IMG/VR virus record: IMGVR_UViG_3300017917_001030 | Span: 1 to 64,000 of that record | Origin: a virus | Reading direction: 5' to 3' (one strand) | DNA: 64,000 nucleotides | Shown: positions 20,549 through 58,688 of the stretch, one piece after another | Layout: each line of letters starts with the position of its first letter | Position numbering within the stretch: the first letter of the stretch is position 1 | The notes under the pieces: model-generated | Told to the model about the DNA's origin: nothing | What the model saw: only the letters and a program-made list of their open reading frames with translations | The model's database searches: none | Translations under genes and position numbers: made by a program

Positions 20549-20991
20549 ACAATTTCAAAATTCTAAAATTGGTTAGTGGTGAAGATATTGTATGCACGAT
20601 TGAGAATTATTCTAAAAATATTAGACAGCGAGAATATATTGTTGTAAAAAATCCGGTTCTTTTAAATCAGGTTAGAATACCTAGAGGACCTGTTATTGTA
20701 GAGTCCTATATTCTTTCACCTTGGGTTGCACTATCACCTAATGAAGAATTTGAAATTCCTACTCAGCATATAATTATTGTGTCTGATGCTAAAGAAACAT
20801 TGCAGTCAAATTATAATACATTTATTGAATCGAGAAAACAAAATATAGAGTCCGGCGTCGATGATGATGATTCTGACTTTGATATAAATGAAACTATTGA
20901 TAATTTTTTAAAAAGAAATGAGAGTGAAGACGATGGCGAAGACGAAAGCGACAACTACAGTGGATTCGGAAGTGGAAGAACTATCCACTGA
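20545..20991 (+). CDS. Conserved T4-like hypothetical protein (Sm-like N-terminus, acidic tail)
   Basis: KILKLVSGEDIV motif; occupies the usual uvsW-gp55 slot. Confidence 0.6.
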   Translation: MNNFKILKLVSGEDIVCTIENYSKNIRQREYIVVKNPVLLNQVRIPRGPVIVESYILSPWVALSPNEEFEIPTQHIIIVSDAKETLQSNYNTFIESRKQNIESGVDDDDSDFDINETIDNFLKRNESEDDGEDESDNYSGFGSGRTIH

Positions 20992-21538
20992 AGTTTCTAT
21001 CCCTGCATCATCGCATTATGTAGATAATAAGAAATTTCTACAGGCATTGATTGATTATAGAGCAAGTGTTTTAGAAGCTGCTGCGGCCGGCAAAGAACAA
21101 CCTATTGTTCCTAAATATATAGGTGAATGTTTTATTAAAATTGCTACGCACCTTTCTTATAAATCAAACTTTATTAATTACAGTTTTAAAGACGATATGA
21201 TTTCGGATGGAATCGAAAATTGTCTTACAGCTGTAGCAAAATTTGATCCAAGCAAATCATCCAATCCATTCGCATATTACACTCAAATTATTTACTTTGC
21301 TTTTATTCGCAGGATCCAAAAAGAAAAGAAGCAACAGGCAACGAAATATAAACTGATTGAGAATATGGATATCGATGAAATCATTTCTCAAGATGAAACG
21401 GGTGAGGTCAGCACCCAATTCTTAGATTACCTCAGACGTCAAATGGATACCGTTGATATCGAGAAACGGGTAATCACGCCTCCTAAAAAGAACAAACCAA
21501 CCTTAGAAGACTCAAATAATCCACTTGATTTAGATTGA
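20918..21538 (+). CDS. gp55: Late-transcription sigma factor gp55 (true start may be 20933)
   Basis: HYVDNKKF, YIGECFIKIA.HLS, NFINY, DMISDGIENC, NPFAYYTQI.YFAFIRRIQKEKKQ. Confidence 0.95.
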   Translation: MRVKTMAKTKATTTVDSEVEELSTEVSIPASSHYVDNKKFLQALIDYRASVLEAAAAGKEQPIVPKYIGECFIKIATHLSYKSNFINYSFKDDMISDGIENCLTAVAKFDPSKSSNPFAYYTQIIYFAFIRRIQKEKKQQATKYKLIENMDIDEIISQDETGEVSTQFLDYLRRQMDTVDIEKRVITPPKKNKPTLEDSNNPLDLD

Positions 21539-21553
21539 GGAACACTATATAAT
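21525..21553 (+). promoter_or_regulatory. Sigma70-type (early/middle) promoter for the 7-deazaguanine island
   Basis: TTGATT-17 nt-TATAAT upstream of the queE RBS (GGAG at 21571). Confidence 0.65.
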
Positions 21554-21579
21554 ATGTGTATCAGTATGACGGAGTCTTT

Positions 21580-22449
21580 ATGGCAAAACTAAAAGTAAGC
21601 GAATTATTCTATAGTATTCAGGGCGAAGGCCGCTATATGGGCGTACCTTCAGTGTTTCTTCGTACCTTCGGATGTAACTTTACGTGCGATGGTTTCGGTA
21701 TGAATAAAGGTGAGAAGAGCAATGAAAGAAATGTTATTGCGATTAAAGCAGAAGAGTATTCTAATTACAGAGACCTTCCTCTTGTCCATACAGGTTGCGA
21801 TTCGTATGCTAGTTGGGATCCTCGTTTTAAGCATCTTAGCCCTGTTGTGGACACTGACAGCCTTGCCAATTCGATTGTGGATTTACTTCCGAACAAGGGG
21901 TGGCAAGACGAACATCTTGTAATTACGGGCGGCGAACCATTGCTTGGTTGGCAACGACAATTTCCCGAATTGCTTGAGCATGAGGTTATGAAACCTCTTA
22001 AAGAACTAACTTTTGAGACAAACGGTACTCAAGAGTTGACGGAAGAATTTACCAAGTATCTAGATGGTTGGACAGGTAGATTCTTATTGGGTGGAGGCAA
22101 ACGAGGAAAGAATAAACTTACATTCTCGGTTTCACCAAAGCTTTCTGTTTCCGGAGAGAAATGGGAAGATGCTATTAAGCCAGAAGTTATTTTGCAATAT
22201 TCCTGCGTTGGTTATGTTTATCTAAAATTTGTTGTAGCAACTCAACAAGATTTTGAAGAAGCAGAACAAGCAGTTAAAGAATATACTGCAGGCGGGTTTA
22301 ATGGGCCAGTATATTTGATGCCGTGTGGTGGCACGGAACAACTTTATAATATGAATAATCGAACCGTTGCAGAAATGGCAATGAAGAAGGGTTGGCGATA
22401 CTCAGATAGATTGCAAATTCCATTGTTCAAGAATGCATGGGGCACTTAA
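21580..22449 (+). CDS. queE: 7-carboxy-7-deazaguanine synthase QueE (radical SAM)
   Basis: SELFYSIQGEG, SVFLRTFGCNFTC...GCDS, VITGGEPLL, ETNGT, SVSPKL, RLQIPLF. ATG at 21580 has a GGAG RBS. Confidence 0.9.
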   Translation: MAKLKVSELFYSIQGEGRYMGVPSVFLRTFGCNFTCDGFGMNKGEKSNERNVIAIKAEEYSNYRDLPLVHTGCDSYASWDPRFKHLSPVVDTDSLANSIVDLLPNKGWQDEHLVITGGEPLLGWQRQFPELLEHEVMKPLKELTFETNGTQELTEEFTKYLDGWTGRFLLGGGKRGKNKLTFSVSPKLSVSGEKWEDAIKPEVILQYSCVGYVYLKFVVATQQDFEEAEQAVKEYTAGGFNGPVYLMPCGGTEQLYNMNNRTVAEMAMKKGWRYSDRLQIPLFKNAWGT

Positions 22450-22465
22450 CTAAAAGGAAAAATAT

Positions 22466-22657
22466 ATGAGCGCACACGACGATATTAAAAACATTCTTGC
22501 TTCTTATGAGGCAGAAAATACAAAATTTGAAGCAGGTAATAGCGCTGCTGGTACTCGAGCTAGAAAGGCATTGGCTGAATTGGCCAAGGCGGTCAAAGCA
22601 CGCCGCAATGAAATTACAGAAACCAAAGCTGCAAGAAAAGAAGCAAAGGGAGCTTGA
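22466..22657 (+). CDS. Histone H1-like (Hc1-type) small basic protein
   Basis: KFEAGNSAAGTRARKAL.EL.K..KARR motif resembles the Hc1 family. Confidence 0.65.
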   Translation: MSAHDDIKNILASYEAENTKFEAGNSAAGTRARKALAELAKAVKARRNEITETKAARKEAKGA

Positions 22658-22658
22658 T

Positions 22659-22850
22659 ATGAGCGCATTCAGCACTTTAACTAAAGTTAACGATAGTATC
22701 ACTATTAATCGTTATGACAATGGTTGGATGGTCGAGGTCTCGGGTCGAACTGAAGATGACGATTGGACAACTGTTAAGCTTGTATGCACTTCAGAAGAAG
22801 GCTTGCATGCTTTGATCCATGAATACAACAATATGGAAATTAATAAATAA
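22659..22850 (+). CDS. Small hypothetical protein (63 aa)
   Basis: ATG 2 nt after the upstream stop with a GGAG RBS; MSAFSTLTKVNDSITINRYDNGWMVEVSGR... Confidence 0.6.
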   Translation: MSAFSTLTKVNDSITINRYDNGWMVEVSGRTEDDDWTTVKLVCTSEEGLHALIHEYNNMEINK

Positions 22851-22854
22851 AAGT

Positions 22855-22927
22855 GTCACACAACGGTGACCAAACAAAACCAGTGCTACAGAAATGTAGC
22901 ACATTTCACATCCGTGTAAGGAAGGAT
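22855..22927 (+). promoter_or_regulatory. Structured 5' leader of folE (candidate cis-regulatory RNA)
   Basis: Hairpins GTCAC/GTGAC and GTGCTACA-GAAA-TGTAGCAC, plus ATCC/GGAT enclosing the SD region. Confidence 0.4.
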
Positions 22928-22931
22928 TAAA

Positions 22932-23624
22932 ATGTCATTTAACAAAACTAAGTGTGACCCTGAATTGGGTCGTAAGGTTCACGAACATCTAGTGGCAATG
23001 GGTGTAGAAACTCCCCTGACGCCAAACACATCTGCAATCGACCGCAAAGAGCGTATCAGTTTAATTGAAGGTCATTTTAAAGAAATCATGCAATTGCTTA
23101 ATCTTGATTTGACTGATGACAGTCTTATCGAGACACCTAAGCGTGTTGCTAAGATGTATGTTAATGAAATCTTCTGGGGACTCGACTATGACGCATTTCC
23201 GAAGTGTACGACAGTGGATAACAAAATGCACTATAATGAAATGGTTGTCGAAAGAAATGTCTCCGTACAGTCTAATTGTGAGCATCATTTTGTGGTCATT
23301 GATGGTTTCGCTACTGTGGCATATGTACCTAAGAATAAAGTATTGGGTCTAAGTAAAATTAATCGTATCGTTGAATATTTCAGTAAGCGTCCTCAGATTC
23401 AAGAGCGACTAACAGAACAGATCTTCCACACTTTGCAATTTATTCTAGGTACAGAGGATGTTGCAGTTATGATTGACGCACAACACTATTGTGTCAAGAG
23501 TCGAGGTGTCGAAGATGTTAATAGCTCTACAGTTACAGTAAGACTCGGCGGCGGATTTAAAACAGACCCTGCAGCACGTAATGAATTCTTGAGTATCGCT
23601 AGAATGGGCAAAGTATGTCAGTAA
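22932..23624 (+). CDS. folE: GTP cyclohydrolase I
   Basis: [39 protein letters not shown]. Confidence 0.96.
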
Positions 23625-24124
23625 ATGTAATGGTCGACCTTGAGACAATGTCCACAAGGTCTTATGCTGCCATTTGTTCAATTGGTGCAGTAAAATGGGA
23701 AGGTACTAAAATTATTGATACCTTTTATTGCACTGTTGATCTTAAATCTTGTAAAGATGCAGGTATGCATATTTCAAAAGATACTGTTAAATGGTGGTCA
23801 GAACAGAACAAAGAAGCTCTTCGCGAACTAACTAAAAACAATATCCCAATCAAAGAAGCATTGGATAAGTTTAGAGACTGGTTTGGAAGTAAGAGCCTTT
23901 GTGTCTGGGGCAACGGTGCAGTGTTTGACAATGTTATTCTAGCTAACGCATATTTTGTTCACGGAGAAGAACCTCCTTGGAAATGCTGGGATGATCGTTG
24001 CTACAGAACACTAAAGAATCTATTCCACTGGATTCCTGCTGACGAACGAGAAGGCGTTTACCACAACGCTTTAGACGACGCAATCTTTCAAACAAAACAC
24101 GCTATTAAAATACTAGGTGAATAA
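23615..24124 (+). CDS. DEDDh 3'-5' exonuclease (DexA/Rv2179c-like)
   Basis: [22 protein letters not shown]. Confidence 0.85.
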
Positions 24125-25488
24125 TGAACCTTTATAATAAAAGGATCGCTTTCTGTTTGAGCGATCAGCACACTATACCTCATGGTGGTCTTGGACAGTT
24201 TGCTAAAAGTTTTATTGAAACATTCACACCCCTTGGCTACAAGATTGATATTATTCTGGATAAGCCTGTCTCCAATTTAGAGTTCAAGGAATATCTAGAG
24301 TCAATCGGCGCACGCTTTGTCTGTAACGACAATCCTATTAGCTATTCTCGCCATTCTAAAATTTTTATGTTTGATGATTCTATTAATTACGAAAAGGTAA
24401 TTAACTTCAGAGAATCTATGATGAAGGCTCTAAGCGAAAACATCTACGATATCGTTATTTGTAACACGCTAGAATCTTTCCCTGCAGTTTATGCATTGTC
24501 CATTCAAAGGTCTGTACAAGTAATTTACTATACTCATAATGAGAGTATGGTGTTTCTGAACGATAGAACCTGGCGCAATGAATTTACAGAATCATTCAAC
24601 GAAACTTTTAATTCGTTAATGAGCGTGGCTGGCATTACAATCGCGACTCAGACTACACGAAATCTTATTGAGTTGTATGGTAAGAAGTTGCATAACGCCA
24701 AGCATCTTCCTATTCCTATGACCGAAAAGTCTTTGTTAGAACCGCATTACAAAAAGCGTGAAGGTGTGCTTTGGATCGGTCGTTGGGAACCTAGAAAAAA
24801 TCCCGAAGAGTTTATTCGTGTTATTAAAGAAACAGGATTGCCCGCAAAAGTTATTACCAATGCTAACGGTGCTAAGAAGTTTGAAGCAGCATTAAAAGAG
24901 ATTAATGCTACATACGAAATTAAGGCAGGGGTCTACGGAAAAGAGAAAGTGGATTTCCTAACATCCGCGCGGGTAGCATATAACCCTGCAATCAGAGAAA
25001 GTTTTGGTCTTGCATTTTATGAATGTATGGGGCATATGCCAACGGTTGCACTAAAAGGAATGTCCTGGTTAGAAAACTTTAATAGTAATTATTACTACAG
25101 CGCAGACCGTAAGGGTATATCTGACCTTGTAACTAAACTATATAATGAATTTGATACTGCTGAAAAATGGTACCAACTTATGACGGTTAATGGTCTCGTT
25201 GATGAAAATGAAAAGGGTATTCAGGCTTGGTTGGATTGTTTCAATAGTTTCGCACCTGCTGAATCCAATTCGGAAAAGGCAAAGATCAATGAATATGATA
25301 CAATCAAATATTCTGAATTCATTTCAATTCTAAATAGAAAAGAATTATCAATCGACGATGTTCGTTCTGTATTGACGAACAAGTATAAGTATAATATAAT
25401 CTATACTGATAGCAATACGTATCTATCTAAAGATCCTAATTTTAAACCACAAGAAGAAGCGCAAGGCTTAGAGGCATTATTTGCATGA
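24124..25488 (+). CDS. GT-B (GT4-like) glycosyltransferase in the DNA-modification island
   Basis: PHGGLGQF N-terminal motif, WIGRWEPRKNP, ESFGLAFYE (E-x7-E). Confidence 0.75.
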   Translation: MNLYNKRIAFCLSDQHTIPHGGLGQFAKSFIETFTPLGYKIDIILDKPVSNLEFKEYLESIGARFVCNDNPISYSRHSKIFMFDDSINYEKVINFRESMMKALSENIYDIVICNTLESFPAVYALSIQRSVQVIYYTHNESMVFLNDRTWRNEFTESFNETFNSLMSVAGITIATQTTRNLIELYGKKLHNAKHLPIPMTEKSLLEPHYKKREGVLWIGRWEPRKNPEEFIRVIKETGLPAKVITNANGAKKFEAALKEINATYEIKAGVYGKEKVDFLTSARVAYNPAIRESFGLAFYECMGHMPTVALKGMSWLENFNSNYYYSADRKGISDLVTKLYNEFDTAEKWYQLMTVNGLVDENEKGIQAWLDCFNSFAPAESNSEKAKINEYDTIKYSEFISILNRKELSIDDVRSVLTNKYKYNIIYTDSNTYLSKDPNFKPQEEAQGLEALFA

Positions 25489-26768
25489 AGACATTTGAAT
25501 ACGTTATTTCTGGACCAGCATATCTGCGTCTAGGTTCGGAGCAATGTAACGATCCCGAAACACTACAGATGATCTTGGATATGATGAATAACGTATGTCA
25601 TAACCAAAATAATCATACATTCTCTCTACTGTATAATGGTTTTACCGAAAAGAACTTTGGGCCAAAACTACAGAAGTTTAGACCAGCTATTAAGAACATT
25701 CATGCAGACTCAGGTGGTCTACAGATTGTTACTCGTGGTCTTAAGAATACACCTGAAGTTAGAGAAAAGGTTTATACTAATCAGGCAACGCATGCTGACA
25801 TTGGTATGGCTTTTGATGAAATTCCCGTAAAGGCAACTTCTACATCTGGTACATCTTCAAAGATTGATACCAAGCGTCGTTTTGCTGATATGGAAAATTT
25901 TGAGGAATATGCGAGGCAAACAGGTAAGAACGTTAGAGCGCAGATTGAAAAGTTTAACGAACTGAATAGTCAGTGCAGGCCTTTCGTTATTATGCATGGC
26001 TCGTCATTCGAGACATATCAGCTTTGGGCTAATACTATTCTTGAAGAAGTGGGTGATCTAAAGCATCGCATCGGCGGTGTTGCTATGGGATCTGCTGCTC
26101 TTGGTATGGGTCAGCTTGAGGATGTTAAGCGAGCATTTTATGTAACGGGTATGCCCTTTGAACGACCATTTCATCTTCACGTTCTAGGTGTTGGCGCACT
26201 TCGTCGTATGTTGCCTTATCTGTTGTTTAGCCAAACTGGTCTATATGACGGTATTGATATTTCGTATGACTCGACAACACATTCTATGTCATTGGACAAT
26301 GGACTATTTTATTTCTCACACTATAAAAAGTCTCCGGGCTCTATTTACGGCGGAACGTCTGTAAAGATGGGTAGAGAGTATTCTAATATTTACAGAACAG
26401 TGACTGAAGAAATTAATACAGTATGTGGAACAGACTATACGCCAGAGCAATATCATAAATTGATGAATACAGGTGTTGGCAAATACCTTGAAGAAGGTGG
26501 AACCTTTAAAGATATTATGCAAGCCCGACTAGGATTTATTCTTACAAACGTGCATAATTTTACAAAAGATGTTTCAGAACTTACAAAGTCGAAAGATCAA
26601 TTCTTAAAATTCTGCAGAGAAAAAGATTGCGAAAACGAATACGCTACATTGTTTGAAGTTAAGACACCCGATGACTTTAGACATTGGGAAACACACGTAG
26701 GCAAATATATGGATTCTGATCCAGTTAACACACAAGCACCAGTATCACTTGAGGACCTATTCACATGA
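25485..26768 (+). CDS. dpdA: TGT/DpdA-like guanine transglycosylase (probable DNA 7-deazaguanine insertion enzyme)
   Basis: TGT-fold motifs HADSGG, AFDEIP, GGVAMG, HLHVLGVG, SYDST; clustered with folE/queD/queE. Confidence 0.75.
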   Translation: MKTFEYVISGPAYLRLGSEQCNDPETLQMILDMMNNVCHNQNNHTFSLLYNGFTEKNFGPKLQKFRPAIKNIHADSGGLQIVTRGLKNTPEVREKVYTNQATHADIGMAFDEIPVKATSTSGTSSKIDTKRRFADMENFEEYARQTGKNVRAQIEKFNELNSQCRPFVIMHGSSFETYQLWANTILEEVGDLKHRIGGVAMGSAALGMGQLEDVKRAFYVTGMPFERPFHLHVLGVGALRRMLPYLLFSQTGLYDGIDISYDSTTHSMSLDNGLFYFSHYKKSPGSIYGGTSVKMGREYSNIYRTVTEEINTVCGTDYTPEQYHKLMNTGVGKYLEEGGTFKDIMQARLGFILTNVHNFTKDVSELTKSKDQFLKFCREKDCENEYATLFEVKTPDDFRHWETHVGKYMDSDPVNTQAPVSLEDLFT

Positions 26769-27211
26769 CAACCGGAACAACAAATACTCTTAAACTTGAT
26801 GAATTCAAACCACCAGCTGCATACTTGAAAAAGCGCAGCTTTATCTGGGTCACCTTCCAAAAAGAAGGCATTCACAAATATCCTGCTGCTGCAACTGATC
26901 CTAAACTAGCAACAGGTGATTGGCTCGATGTATCATTCTTAGGTACGCCTCATAGACATATCTTCCATTTTAAAGTTCAAATGGAAGTATTCCACAACGA
27001 TCGAGATGTAGAGTTTATCCAAGCTAAACGTATCATGGAGCGTTGGTACAGCGATGGCACGTTGCAGCTTGACTATAAGTCTTGTGAAATGATGGCAAAT
27101 GATTTGTATATGAAATGTATTTCTATGTGGCCTGATCGAGATTATGTTATTGAAGTTTCTGAAGATGGTGAGAATGGCTGCAAAATTTATTTTGAAAGGA
27201 TCGCTGTATAA
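26765..27211 (+). CDS. QueD/PTPS-like T-fold protein
   Basis: FQKEGIHKYP, HRHIFHFKV, DRDVEFI, SCEMMA, EVSEDGENG; located in the deazaguanine cluster. Confidence 0.6.
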   Translation: MTTGTTNTLKLDEFKPPAAYLKKRSFIWVTFQKEGIHKYPAAATDPKLATGDWLDVSFLGTPHRHIFHFKVQMEVFHNDRDVEFIQAKRIMERWYSDGTLQLDYKSCEMMANDLYMKCISMWPDRDYVIEVSEDGENGCKIYFERIAV

Positions 27212-28410
27212 TGGGTAAGTTATTTTATATGGGTCTAGAACCCTATGAAGGTCGTTATACTTTGCAGCTTCAGCAATGGAGTGAAGAAGTATTTAAGCGA
27301 CGTGGCATTGACTATGAAATCATTACTGGCGACACACTTGATTCGTCTAAAGCTATTGTAACAGGCCAAGTTCTTGATGCACATGGCCGAAGCTATTATT
27401 CTTTGACTCAGATGGCTAACCTTGTTAAGAAAATGAAACAAGGTGAGATTACATACGAGGATACTATTTTCTTTGAAGATATGTTTACGCCTGGTATTGA
27501 ATCATTGCCTTATATCATGGATCAACTAGGTTATGAACATCGACCAAGTGTTTTTATTCGTTGTCTTGCTCAGACCATCGACCCCGATGATTTTGTCCAC
27601 GTATGGGATATGCAAGACTGGATGGGACATTATGAAAAGATGTGTGATGTATGGGTAACAGGTGTACTTGCATCTAATGAAGAAATGGTCGCCCATATGA
27701 AGATCGCTGGCTGGAAGGCCCCGATCTATAATATTAGTGGACTTGCTTTCGGTAAGAATGAAGTTCGTTCTAGAGTTCCCGTAATTAAACCTTTCAACGA
27801 ACGTAAACAACGAGTCGTGTTTGCTGCAAGATTCGATCAGGAAAAGCAGCCAGACTTTTATATGGATATTGTTGAGCGTTATCAGAACTTTTTCCCCGAT
27901 GTGGAATTTGCTGTTCTATCTGGCGGCCCACTAAGAAGTAATGATCCTAAGTATCTAGAACGTGCTCGCGCATTAGAAAAGACACATAACTTTAAGATTT
28001 ACGAGAATCTTAAAAAAGATGAATACTATGAAATTCTAGCTGATTCGCGAGTATTGTTTAATTGTGCATTGCAGGATTGGGTAAGTAATACAGCATCGGA
28101 AGCAGATGCGCTAGGAACGAATTGTTTGTATCCTGCTTATAGATCTTTCCCTGAAACATTCGCGAATGATAATAAGTGTCTTTACATCCCATGGTCACAA
28201 GATGACGCAATTAATAAATTGATTTATCTAATGAACCATGAAAGACCCAATCTAGGCAAGCTGTCTGATTGGACAGATAAAACTATTGATCGCTGTCTCG
28301 ATATTATGGGTCTAGGTACAAGTGGCCCTGAAGAGAATATGAAACATCATCACAAATGGTATCGTGGATTGAAGGATTATAGAAACCATGCAGCAGAAAC
28401 AAAATACTAA
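27211..28410 (+). CDS. GT-B glycosyltransferase in the DNA-modification island
   Basis: VFAARFDQEKQP, LKKDEYYEILADSRVLFNCALQDWVSNTASEA...YPAYRSFPE. Confidence 0.75.
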   Translation: MGKLFYMGLEPYEGRYTLQLQQWSEEVFKRRGIDYEIITGDTLDSSKAIVTGQVLDAHGRSYYSLTQMANLVKKMKQGEITYEDTIFFEDMFTPGIESLPYIMDQLGYEHRPSVFIRCLAQTIDPDDFVHVWDMQDWMGHYEKMCDVWVTGVLASNEEMVAHMKIAGWKAPIYNISGLAFGKNEVRSRVPVIKPFNERKQRVVFAARFDQEKQPDFYMDIVERYQNFFPDVEFAVLSGGPLRSNDPKYLERARALEKTHNFKIYENLKKDEYYEILADSRVLFNCALQDWVSNTASEADALGTNCLYPAYRSFPETFANDNKCLYIPWSQDDAINKLIYLMNHERPNLGKLSDWTDKTIDRCLDIMGLGTSGPEENMKHHHKWYRGLKDYRNHAAETKY

Positions 28411-29401
28411 AGCGGTTGTAGTTACGGGCTATGCAGGATACATCGGAGGACAAACCTGCATAGAACTAAAGAAGCAAGGTTACGAAGTATTTGGTATTGA
28501 TCGTCGCCTTGTTGAGCATACTACTCATTTTGTAGATGAGTTTGTTACTTCTGATTTTTGCGATCACGATTCATTGTCATTGATTAAAAAGGTCAAGCCC
28601 GTTGCTATTATACATTGTGCTGGTACTAGCCTAGTTGGCCCTAGCATGGTAATGCCTGAGGTATACTTTGAAAATAATGTGGCAAGAACAAATAGACTGT
28701 TGGAATTTGTTTCACGCTATGCTAAAGATGCAAAAATTATTTTTAGTAGTAGCGCTGCGGTATATGGTGATCCCGGTAATCAATCTAGCATAATTGAGGG
28801 AATGGATACCAATCCAATTTCACCATATGGTGAGTCTAAGTTGATGGTTGAAAAACTATTGCGTTGGTATAAGCAATGTCATGGTATTGATTATGTTTCA
28901 TTTAGATATTTCAATGCTGCTGGAGCTGACCCCGAAGGCAAGCATGGGCAAGAACCAAACGCAACACATATTATTGCCAAATTATTTGAAGCGGCATTGA
29001 ATAACACCGAATTCAATATGTATGGTTCGACTTATCCTACAAAGGATGGAACTTGTATTCGTGATTATATTCACGTAGCAGATATTGCACGTGCCCATGT
29101 TGCTGCTATAGACAAATATATTTCTGGGATATATAATTTAGGATCATTAACAGGCACATCTAATTTAGAGATGCAAATGCTTGTTGAAAAAACTATTGGA
29201 AAAGAAATTGTAACAGTATTCCAACATATGCGAGCAGGTGATCCTGCTAGATTAGTAGCGGATAGCTCAAAATTTAGATCGCTTGCAGACTGGACACCTC
29301 ATTATAGTAATGAGGATATTGTTAAAGATGCATACAAATGGTATACAAGTGACACGTACAAAACATTACAGAGGCCTTTGCGACGTTCATTCCCTCTATA
29401 A
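28388..29401 (+). CDS. galE: UDP-glucose 4-epimerase
   Basis: VTGYAGYIG, FSSSAAVYG, YGESK, RYFNAAGA, DGTCIRDYIHV.DIA.AH, R.GDP. Confidence 0.88.
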   Translation: MQQKQNTKAVVVTGYAGYIGGQTCIELKKQGYEVFGIDRRLVEHTTHFVDEFVTSDFCDHDSLSLIKKVKPVAIIHCAGTSLVGPSMVMPEVYFENNVARTNRLLEFVSRYAKDAKIIFSSSAAVYGDPGNQSSIIEGMDTNPISPYGESKLMVEKLLRWYKQCHGIDYVSFRYFNAAGADPEGKHGQEPNATHIIAKLFEAALNNTEFNMYGSTYPTKDGTCIRDYIHVADIARAHVAAIDKYISGIYNLGSLTGTSNLEMQMLVEKTIGKEIVTVFQHMRAGDPARLVADSSKFRSLADWTPHYSNEDIVKDAYKWYTSDTYKTLQRPLRRSFPL

Positions 29402-29443
29402 ACATTCTGCACGTCTTTAAACTTGCTACCTTTAAAGGAGACT
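29370..29443 (+). ncRNA. Candidate preQ1-I-like riboswitch / H-type pseudoknot in the queD leader
   Basis: P1 AGAGG(29370-74)/CCTCT(29393-97) is preceded by C and followed by ATAAA. P2 is GACGT(29382-86)/ACGTC(29411-15). A competing hairpin covers the AGGAG SD. Confidence 0.5.
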
Positions 29444-29447
29444 AGAG

Positions 29448-29978
29448 ATGGATAATCAAAATGATGTAGGACATATTTGGCGTTCTGCAAGACAATACAA
29501 ATACACAAGTACAAAAGAATATCACGATGCATTTCCGTGTGCATATCGTCAATGGCGCGCTGATAGCCATTGTAATTTAATCCACGGTTATAGTTTCAGT
29601 ATGAAGTTTTATTTTGGCACCGATAATTTAGATGCACGAAACTGGGCTGCTGATTATGGTGGTCTAAAAGACCTTAAGAAAGTTCTTGAAGATCAATTTG
29701 ACCATACATTGATTGTGGCGCAAGATGATCCTGAGCTTGAGACATTTATGATGTTGCAAGAAAAGAATATGGCTAAGATAATTGTATTACCCGCTGTCGG
29801 TTGCGAAATGCTGGCGGATCAATTATACAAGTATGTTAATGGAGTTTATATTCCTGAATACTGGGGCCCTGGAGAAGCAGAACGCCTATGGTGTTATCGA
29901 GTAGAAGTTCGTGAGACACAATCTAACATGGCTTTTAGAGAAGGTCATCGTGAATGGAATGAGGACTTATTCGCATGA
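29448..29978 (+). CDS. queD: 6-carboxy-5,6,7,8-tetrahydropterin synthase QueD (PTPS family)
   Basis: SHCNLIHGY, DYGGLK, FDHT, GCEMLA, VEVRET..N. Confidence 0.85.
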   Translation: MDNQNDVGHIWRSARQYKYTSTKEYHDAFPCAYRQWRADSHCNLIHGYSFSMKFYFGTDNLDARNWAADYGGLKDLKKVLEDQFDHTLIVAQDDPELETFMMLQEKNMAKIIVLPAVGCEMLADQLYKYVNGVYIPEYWGPGEAERLWCYRVEVRETQSNMAFREGHREWNEDLFA

Positions 29979-30307
29979 AATATAATATCTATGATATCGG
30001 CGGCGAAGTTGTTAAGGACAACGAAACGTATGTTCTTAAAGACAACAAAGCTTTAAATAATCTTGTACTTAGTTCCACTGATCTAAAGCCCGGACAAAGT
30101 ACACGTGGGCATAGTCATCCCGGGCAGGAAGAAGTTTATTACTTTGTTTCTGGTACGGGTGAAATGGAACTGGATGACAAGAAATTTAATGTCCAGGGTG
30201 GGGATGTTGTTCTAATACCGGACGGTGCCTTCCATCGTGTTCACAACAGTTCAAAAGTTAACCCATTGTATTTTGTTTGTGTATTTGACGGCAAGCGAAA
30301 TCACTAA
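29975..30307 (+). CDS. Cupin-domain protein (mannose-6-P isomerase-like)
   Basis: GHSH..QEEVYYF..G.G.M and GDVVLIPDGAFHRVHN cupin motifs. Confidence 0.8.
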   Translation: MKYNIYDIGGEVVKDNETYVLKDNKALNNLVLSSTDLKPGQSTRGHSHPGQEEVYYFVSGTGEMELDDKKFNVQGGDVVLIPDGAFHRVHNSSKVNPLYFVCVFDGKRNH

Positions 30308-58613: not shown

Positions 58614-58688
58614 CGCGGGGTAGCGCAGAAGTAGAGCGCCGGGCTCATAATCCGGAGGTCGGAGGTGCGATTCCTTCCCCCGCAACCA
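58614..58688 (+). tRNA. tRNA-Met(CAT), initiator-like, with encoded CCA
   Basis: Acceptor CGCGGGG/CCCCGCA with a C1:A72 mismatch, D stem GCGC/GCGC, anticodon arm CCGGG-CTCATAA-TCCGG, T arm GGAGG-TGCGATT-CCTTC, ACCA end. Confidence 0.9.

Follow-up and report, generated by a model that had tools for sequence, protein, structure and literature searches.

Organization of the queD leader

The window analyzed here is the whole stretch of 64,000 nt at positions 1 to 64,000 of the IMG/VR virus record IMGVR_UViG_3300017917_001030 (130,602 bases, 72% complete), and the element in question is the leader of its queD-like gene, for which an earlier note on this DNA had proposed a preQ1-I-like pseudoknot riboswitch (preQ1, 7-aminomethyl-7-deazaguanine). 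The source phage is an uncultured aquatic T4-like myovirus that encodes UvsW, UvsY, a gp55-like sigma factor and gp46/47; its closest cultured relative by gp46 is the Methylophilales phage Melnitz (49% identity). The queD-like protein matches Pfam PF01242 (E = 4e-16) and the QueD-like phrog_2389, with TIGR03367 remaining under its cut-off. The open reading frame (ORF) of a GalE-like epimerase precedes it, and the stop codon of that ORF (TAA, 29399-29401) falls within loop L3 of the element, 11 nt 5' of an arm predicted to sequester the queD start. Direct reading of the sequence located all of the bases and pairings quoted in the earlier note, namely the helices P1 and P2, the unpaired cytosine, ATAAAC and the Shine-Dalgarno (SD) sequence. 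P1 and P2 together make up an H-type pseudoknot of ~46 nt in the window (Table 1).

Table 1. Coordinates of the queD leader, of its parts and of the surrounding genes, in window numbering
Feature	Position	Strand	Basis or remark
Whole aptamer-like motif	29367..29421	+	match of covariance model R1
P1 5' strand, AGAGG	29370..29374	+	pairs with 29393-97
L1, CCUUUGC, pyrimidine-rich	29375..29381	+	second base C invariant in alignment A1
P2 5' strand, GACGU	29382..29386	+	pairs with 29411-15; helix covaries
L2, UCAUUC, ending in C29392, which adjoins the P1 3' strand	29387..29392	+	UCA..C invariant
P1 3' strand, CCUCU	29393..29397	+	sequence and covariation
L3, AUAAACAUUCUGC	29398..29410	+	family consensus nUAYAAAYUCUGC, UCUG invariant; ATAAAC 3' of P1 in the window
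P2 3' strand, ACGUC	29411..29415	+	sequence and covariation
Predicted 5' arm of start-codon-sequestering helix, CGUCUUUA	29412..29419	+	shares 4 nt with the P2 3' strand
Predicted inner anti-SD, CUUGCU, within the box AAACUUGCU conserved in platform B	29422..29427	+	minimum free energy (MFE) fold; conserved columns
queD SD, AGGAG	29436..29440	+	sequence; MFE fold
Predicted 3' arm of sequestering helix, UAGAGAUG, including the start codon (29448-29450)	29443..29450	+	fold model
queD-like gene, PTPS/QueD family, 176 aa, ATG at 29448	29448..29978	+	ORF list; proposed regulated gene
GalE-like epimerase ORF	28388..29401	+	TIGR01179 galE, 285 bits; last 32 bases enter P1-L3
gp55-like sigma	20918-21538
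QueE-like gene	21556-22449		34% identity to the queE-like gene of locus L023, E = 1e-47
FolE	22932-23624
Exonuclease	23615-24124
Glycosyltransferase-like gene	24124-25488
Tgt/DpdA-like gene	25485-26768		TIGR00449, E = 3e-7
148-aa protein, phrog_17812	between the Tgt/DpdA-like gene and the second glycosyltransferase
Second glycosyltransferase	27211-28410		followed by GalE, QueD and a cupin

Covariation of both helices in related phages

Test regions for P1 were chosen by the pattern of the 3' side alone. A perfect 5-bp partner was present 3-22 nt upstream of L2 in 137 of the 144 distinct regions, compared with 46 of 2875 for random 5-mers, and the seven failures comprise four chance pattern matches in coding DNA and three real motifs with a single mismatch. 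The pairs found are AGCGG/CCGCU (106), UGCGG/CCGCA (17), ACCGG/CCGGU (13) and AUCGG/CCGAU (1). The window and its subgroup carry AGAGG/CCUCU; the 5' strands seen in relatives (AGCGG, ACCGG, AUCGG, UGCGG and UCCGG) each occur with the matching 3' strand. When P1 was used predictively, by selecting motifs with a base other than C at position 4 of the 3' strand, a compensating 5' change was found in 65 of the 68 real motifs listed (89 unique regions among the matches listed, 21 of them chance). The equivalent pattern with a base other than G at position 3 returned 27 stretches (21 unique with sufficient flank), every one a chance match; the AGAGG/CCUCU subgroup has a different L3, so this pattern misses it.

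For P2, an alignment of 112 distinct rows (A4) was built from 37-nt segments, each an invariant 23-nt block flanked by 7 nt on either side. A4 is gapless in MAFFT and its register is set by the invariant flanking bases, independent of pairing; one retained row (L337) is probably a chance match. In the five pairs that adjoin the block, 77.3% of cells are paired (51.8 ± 1.6% for shuffled data, 0/500) and the covariation score is 0.623 (0.238 shuffled, 0/500), while sliding the partner by 1-3 columns leaves 31-46% paired; partner-permutation tests show the same trend. All five pairs vary on both sides, as exemplified by the closing pair (U-A 37, A-U 25, C-G 17, G-C 11, G-U 3, other 19) and by the comparison of GACGU/ACGUC in the window with GGCAU/AUGUC in L025, a double change at one pair. 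G-U pairs are frequent in P2, and therefore the + strand RNA is the strand that folds. In the alignment of complete aptamers (A1), P2 is 66.8% paired, with the 4-bp and 5-bp types of P2 sitting in different registers, and the value of 99.8% for P1 is circular because the rows were selected for a perfect P1; the independent counts given above replace it. Covariation in homologous queD leaders, the check that the earlier note had proposed, is present for both helices. These comparisons argue that a conserved H-type pseudoknot directly upstream of phage queD is real, and that more than a hundred uncultured phages keep it, as judged from sequence, through compensating base changes.

The invariant or near-invariant positions comprise, in P1, its two top G-C pairs and, in the loops, the C at position 2 of L1, UCA..C in L2 and nUAYAAAYUCUGC in L3; ~16 unpaired bases are invariant within the ~50-nt RNA. 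L1 has the family form N-C-U-U, with CC at 29375-76 in the window. The cytosine that adjoins the P1 3' strand is found in 112 of 112 rows in both A1 and A4, a count that reflects the row selection, which required or fixed that base; the base 5' of it is mostly U and at times C or A (U29391-C29392 in the window).

Distribution of the motif

In IMG/VR, 599 stretches encode a QueD relative. Among the best 80 of these (81-92% identity), four lack upstream DNA and 72 of the 76 evaluable loci carry the same motif 5' of queD. A pattern for the 3' half that leaves P1 and P2 free gave at least 120 matches in viral contigs, and 133 distinct versions of the motif occur in 168 of 201 loci. The covariance model R1, built from the 112 distinct aptamers of A1, matches the 130,602-base record once, at the queD leader (49.3 bits, E = 4e-14; the next matches have E = 0.08 or worse), such that the phage has a single copy. 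In cultured phages, blastn searches with the galE-queD region and with a relative of platform type B (see below) gave no match, and those with a platform-A relative gave matches confined to the QueD coding part, so that the leader was found in no isolate of the collection searched; QueD relatives of cultured phages are at most 54% identical. Bacterial and archaeal genomes yielded one real motif among the 120 pattern matches listed, so that the motif appears, from the matches listed, to be phage-restricted so far. The single instance (L272) lies on a 5.9-kb contig of a Bacteroidetes metagenome-assembled genome (MAG), with TTGACC...TATAAT 5' of the motif; the contig probably represents a piece of phage DNA that was binned together with this MAG, and it might hint at a host. 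DNA metagenomes that contain the locus of the window come from pond, freshwater, estuary, aquaculture and wastewater samples, and no RNA run containing it was found among the sequencing runs checked.

Association with queD and position in the transcript

A QueD homologue follows on the same strand in 182 of 187 motif loci; two of the remaining five are cut short, one is a chance match and two have another ORF first. In one of the latter two (L140:680-1423), the 72-bit RNA motif is followed, instead of queD, by an ORF that is 221 aa or longer and contains a methyltransferase-like DLGCG motif, and the gene upstream carries a phosphoribosyltransferase-like ILIVDDINDSGATL motif, which may be that of a phosphoribosyltransferase. 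The genes upstream of the motif are of many unrelated kinds. In 57 of the 60 loci with sufficient flank, the upstream same-strand ORF ends 4-124 nt before P1, and a galE-type overlap is found in three of these 60 only, making the 32-base overlap in the window an exception. Because 57 of 60 loci place the motif between genes, and the genes that precede it are diverse, galE codons do not explain it, contradicting the suggestion that the C-terminal codons of galE alone could have produced the pattern.

Promoter-like sequences are common just upstream of P1. Among 152 distinct upstream flanks, 62 contain a T4-late-like box, NATAA[AG]TA, the end of which usually lies 8 or 11 nt 5' of P1, and 30 contain TTGAC-N16-19-TAnnnT (L001:2900-2921 and L046:930-975 are examples of box-bearing flanks). 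The former resembles the T4-type late promoter TATAAAT given in the available part of PMC9004378. In most loci the motif starts 5-14 nt after such boxes, and in most of the phages the knot would therefore form the extreme 5' terminus of the queD mRNA. In the window, no late-like or TTGAC box was found near P1, and the best sigma-70-like site lies at 29109-29137, sites of this kind not being enriched over shuffled sequence. Further downstream, the hairpin loop of platform A contains TGnTAnnnT (an extended -10 element) in 76 of 81 leaders (for instance L001:2954-3003 and L022:2935-2985), 16-17 nt after a -35-like TTACAA/TTTACA formed by L3, and the variable base of L3 is C in 78 of 81 platform-A leaders and T or A in 25 of 29 platform-B leaders. 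This arrangement suggests that platform A embeds a sigma-70-type promoter, from which a short early queD mRNA lacking the aptamer would arise.

Expression platforms and the direction of control

At least three types of platform lie downstream of the same aptamer, and the combination of one aptamer with several expression platforms is typical of riboswitches. Platform A is a hairpin, CCUAUG...CAUAGG. P2 ends with the two C residues that begin this hairpin, and the AGG of the SD lies in the 3' arm. In platform B, the type found in the window, the P2 3' strand and three further bases (UGUCRUC) pair with GAUGGCA, which holds the start codon, and this outer helix encloses an anti-SD hairpin made from the conserved AAACUUGCU box. 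The favored fold of 29405-29462 in the window (-8.3 kcal/mol) is shifted in register relative to the other platform-B leaders: CGUCUUUA pairs with UAGAGAUG, start codon included, with a pair probability of 0.94, and the inner helix joins 29422-27 to the SD. The hairpin 29413-21/29431-42 that the earlier note had drawn as burying the SD can be formed, but at -1.0 kcal/mol (pair probability 0.006) it is not the favored alternative to the -8.3 kcal/mol fold. The proposal of mutually exclusive folds stands insofar as the P2 3' strand is common to the pseudoknot and the sequestering helix, an overlap present in the thermodynamic models; the register and the partner differ from those proposed.

The consequences of knot formation for the SD were modeled with partition functions in which the P2 3' strand was blocked to mimic the knot, a block in L3 serving as the control. 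The predicted accessibility of the SD rises from 0.21 to 0.57 in platform A (88 leaders; control 0.20) and from 0.16 to 0.37 in platform B (31 leaders; control 0.16), and from 0.18 to 0.38 in the window. The P2 3' strand lies at least 20 nt before the SD, and the logic in the models is ON for 119 of the 150 leaders, those of platforms A and B. This supports an ON wiring for most of the family, not all, in line with the suggestion that queD is ON when the pseudoknot forms. A conserved leader aptamer, varying platforms and queD downstream in 182 of 187 loci are together what is generally expected of a riboswitch.

Comparison with preQ1-I and other known systems

No Rfam 15 family matches the motif at its gathering threshold. 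At E ≤ 10, all 4227 families run against 29300-29520 gave only a Tetrahymena small nucleolar RNA and a plant microRNA, both chance matches, and no family was found on the motif in 14 homologous loci. RF00522 (preQ1-I), searched alone at E ≤ 10, has no match in the whole 130,602-base record, and neither preQ1-II (RF01054) nor preQ1-III (RF02680) matches the window segment or the relatives at that limit. The gathering threshold of RF00522 is 39 bits, which the motif does not reach; the positive control gave 45-56 bits at four sites in two Bacillota genomes (plus Bacillus subtilis). When R1 was applied to four genuine preQ1-I loci, its best match fell exactly on the RF00522 site in three, with scores of only 6-11 bits (E = 0.013-0.51) and covering model positions 4-37, the P1-L2-P1-L3 part only.

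Class I preQ1 aptamers, as described in the available part of PMC11625349, are H-type pseudoknots with UC (type I) or AC (types II and III) before the P1 3' strand, the cytosine of which pairs with preQ1, and in types I and III the P1 5' strand is followed by UU; the preQ1 riboswitches described there attenuate expression on binding. The genuine examples read AGAGG-UUC...CAUC-CCUCU-AUAAAAAA-CUAG. Members of the preQ1-I family are expected to bind preQ1 (and preQ0) selectively and to repress expression, either through a terminator or by occluding the SD within or beside P2. The phage motif shares the H-type topology, a 5-bp G+C-rich P1 (with both helices covarying), an L2 that ends in C directly 5' of the P1 3' strand, in the place of the preQ1-I specificity cytosine and mostly as the UC of type I, an A-rich strand after P1 and a link to a 7-deazaguanine biosynthesis gene. 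It differs in its L1, which is 4-12 nt long with an invariant C (N-C-U-U) rather than UU/UUC, and in its 13-nt L3, where the invariant UCUGC stands between the A-rich part and P2, whereas the preQ1-I tail runs directly into P2. The phage aptamer measures 46-52 nt, compared with ~34 nt for preQ1-I, and its P2 is 4-7 bp, highly variable and separate from the SD. Its logic appears to be ON, and among the matches listed it has so far been seen on phage contigs only. Of the preQ1-I layout claimed for the window, the 5-bp P1, the invariant C and UAYAAA are borne out; no Rfam preQ1 model matches at E ≤ 10. We treat the motif by analogy as one that may work like a preQ1-I aptamer, but do not assign it to that family.

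Other characterized leaders offer partial parallels. The adenine riboswitch of Vibrio vulnificus add is a translational ON switch with a three-way-junction aptamer; there too the 3' strand of an aptamer helix doubles as part of the helix that hides the SD or start codon, and aptamer folding stabilized by the ligand frees the start, although the junction is not a pseudoknot and bears no sequence relation to the phage motif. The mRNA leader of T4 gene 32 contains an autoregulatory pseudoknot that binds its own protein, gp32. Both it and the present motif are small H-type pseudoknots that lie in the mRNA leader of a T4-type phage gene, some tens of nucleotides upstream of the start codon, and are implicated in translational control, but the present motif precedes queD and its loop conservation resembles that of metabolite aptamers. 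Riboswitch-type RNA on aquatic T4-like phages has a precedent in the glutamine riboswitch of phage Melnitz and pelagimyophages (available part of PMC9004378). Those riboswitches belong to Rfam families that are also bacterial, whereas the queD-leader motif matches no Rfam family and, among the matches listed, is essentially absent from the bacterial genomes sampled.

Proposed mechanism

The comparative data establish, at the level of sequence, a conserved pseudoknot with a strict link to queD. We consider it fairly probable that this is a riboswitch-type leader, in which a small molecule stabilizes the knot, the sequestering arm is removed and queD translation is turned ON. Positions 29367-29450 would then be the queD mRNA leader and one copy of a phage-specific RNA family, in which the P2 3' strand also serves as the 5' arm of a helix masking the start codon and, via the inner anti-SD hairpin, the SD. 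Stabilization of the pseudoknot would withdraw this arm and allow the ribosome to start on queD. The stabilizer would most likely be a small molecule that stacks where P1 meets P2 and pairs with C29392; as an invariant C stands next to P1, a guanine-faced compound is indicated, and by analogy the ligand could be a guanine-faced heterocycle such as a compound of the 7-deazaguanine pathway, a pterin (for example, the QueD substrate) or a guanine compound. In this respect we infer that a ligand binds, of what kind it is and in which direction it acts. The ON logic would fit a substrate or feedstock, such as dihydroneopterin triphosphate or GTP, better than an end-product. A more specific version, which we offer tentatively, is a new phage-only class, an enlarged cousin of preQ1-I that senses a compound or feedstock of the phage's own route of 7-deazaguanine DNA modification and switches queD translation ON; candidate ligands would be dihydroneopterin triphosphate, 6-carboxy-tetrahydropterin (CPH4), 7-carboxy-7-deazaguanine (CDG), 7-cyano-7-deazaguanine (preQ0) and a guanine nucleotide.

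A number of observations count against a metabolite-controlled ON switch of this kind. In fixed register 23% of the P2 cells are unpaired, and the subgroup that combines GGCAU with AAGCC has an internal A-A mismatch, others being bulged. The MFE of 29360-29460 is -12.6 kcal/mol (shuffled mean -13.94, z = +0.43), and 128 of 200 shuffles fold as well. In four of the 76 QueD relatives, queD is overlapped by a queE-like gene, and no motif lies within 3 kb. The embedded promoters may account for part of the sequence conservation. In the window, ribosomes translating galE must traverse P1, which would unfold the knot. The remaining platforms (31 of 150 leaders) show an SD accessibility of 0.58 when free, 0.62 when blocked and 0.61 in the control. 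The platform helices are conserved with no compensatory changes detected by RNAalifold (0/7 and 0/6 pairs), and the platform-A rows were picked by a regular expression that demands the hairpin; given platform helices without compensatory changes, the ON wiring therefore rests on the thermodynamic models. Finally, it would be odd for an end-product to switch a biosynthetic gene ON. The four motif-free loci with the queE overlap (L023, L037, L065 and L070) form a natural leaderless comparison group.

Alternative explanations

The motif might be a divergent but true preQ1-I member that binds preQ1 or preQ0 via C29392, with L1 and L3 enlarged, as its H-type topology, the AGAGG/CCUCU P1 of the window and the (U)C before the P1 3' strand (type I in the available part of PMC11625349) would all allow. 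The best matches of R1 on the RF00522 site in three of four genuine loci, weak as their scores are, and the 7-deazaguanine gene context (FolE, QueE-like, QueD and Tgt/DpdA-like) point the same way. Nonetheless, neither the window nor the full record nor any of 14 relatives contains an RF00522 match at E ≤ 10. In addition, N-C stands where UU would follow the P1 5' strand, UCUGC is inserted before P2, the RNA is ~46-52 rather than ~34 nt long and P2 does not touch the SD. The wiring also looks ON, whereas the preQ1 riboswitches described in the available part of PMC11625349 attenuate, and we regard membership of preQ1-I as unlikely. Recognition by a protein instead of a metabolite, either a phage or host translational regulator or QueD itself, might decide between the knot and the sequestering helix, in the manner of the autoregulatory pseudoknot of T4 gene 32. 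In favor of this, UvsW, UvsY, the gp55-like sigma and gp46/47 mark the phage as T4-like, invariant loop bases suit a protein as well as a ligand, and no known riboswitch family matches. The layout is that of small-molecule pseudoknot aptamers, however, with its 5-bp P1, invariant C and A-rich L3, and no candidate regulator gene was found to accompany the motif, the neighbors of which vary widely, making a protein site rather improbable.

The knot could also sense nothing and act as a constitutive or kinetic element, through protection of the mRNA 5' end, a brief co-transcriptional ON state or, in the window only, coupling to galE, where ribosomes ending at 29399-29401 would melt P1, reach 29412-19 and open the queD start. 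The start of the motif 5-14 nt past promoter-like boxes in most loci, which would make it the 5' terminus of the mRNA, a galE stop in L3 11 nt before the sequestering arm and platform helices without covariation would suit such an element. On the other hand, ~16 invariant unpaired bases are far above what a protective hairpin needs, and as the galE-type overlap occurs in only three of 60 relatives, coupling cannot be the function of the family; we give an element of this type only a small chance. Last, the pattern might reflect no RNA element at all, arising by chance, from the C-terminal codons of galE or from promoter sequence acting at the DNA level. The single-sequence fold does not exceed that of shuffled sequences and L3 resembles promoter boxes, but both helices covary and have G-U pairs on the + strand alone, 57 of 60 loci hold the motif between genes and behind diverse upstream neighbors, and the same aptamer precedes platforms with and without the promoter-like loop, rendering this explanation extremely improbable.

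Significance

To our knowledge, few riboswitches have been reported from phages, and the known examples are copies of families found in bacteria. No published report of the present motif was found in the full-text literature, subscription-only journals not being covered, and the motif is apparently an unpublished phage riboswitch candidate of preQ1-I-like architecture. 7-Deazaguanine bases in phage DNA act as a counter-defense against restriction. The motif is a small, very well conserved and apparently phage-specific pseudoknot tied to one gene of the 7-deazaguanine pathway. If it binds a metabolite, it would provide a direct handle on the pathway intermediate that the phage monitors, a new ligand-binding fold or a variant that adds to the preQ1 story, and a compact ~50-nt ON switch for synthetic biology. 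Should the phage-only class prove true, it would be the first known case of a riboswitch that controls DNA hypermodification, as well as a rare pseudoknot switch of the ON type.

Probable 7-deazaguanine gene neighborhood

From their sequence matches, the genes at 20918-30307 in the window (Table 1) form a probable block for 7-deazaguanine DNA modification. Pfam QueC has no match in the record of the window and weak partial matches in five large motif-bearing contigs (records 31-72% complete). Elsewhere in the window, a tRNA gene at 58614-58685 (RF00005, 54.4 bits) is the sole Rfam match above the gathering threshold. Within the block, the presence of two glycosyltransferases and a sugar epimerase between the transglycosylase gene and queD points tentatively to a hypermodification that carries a sugar.

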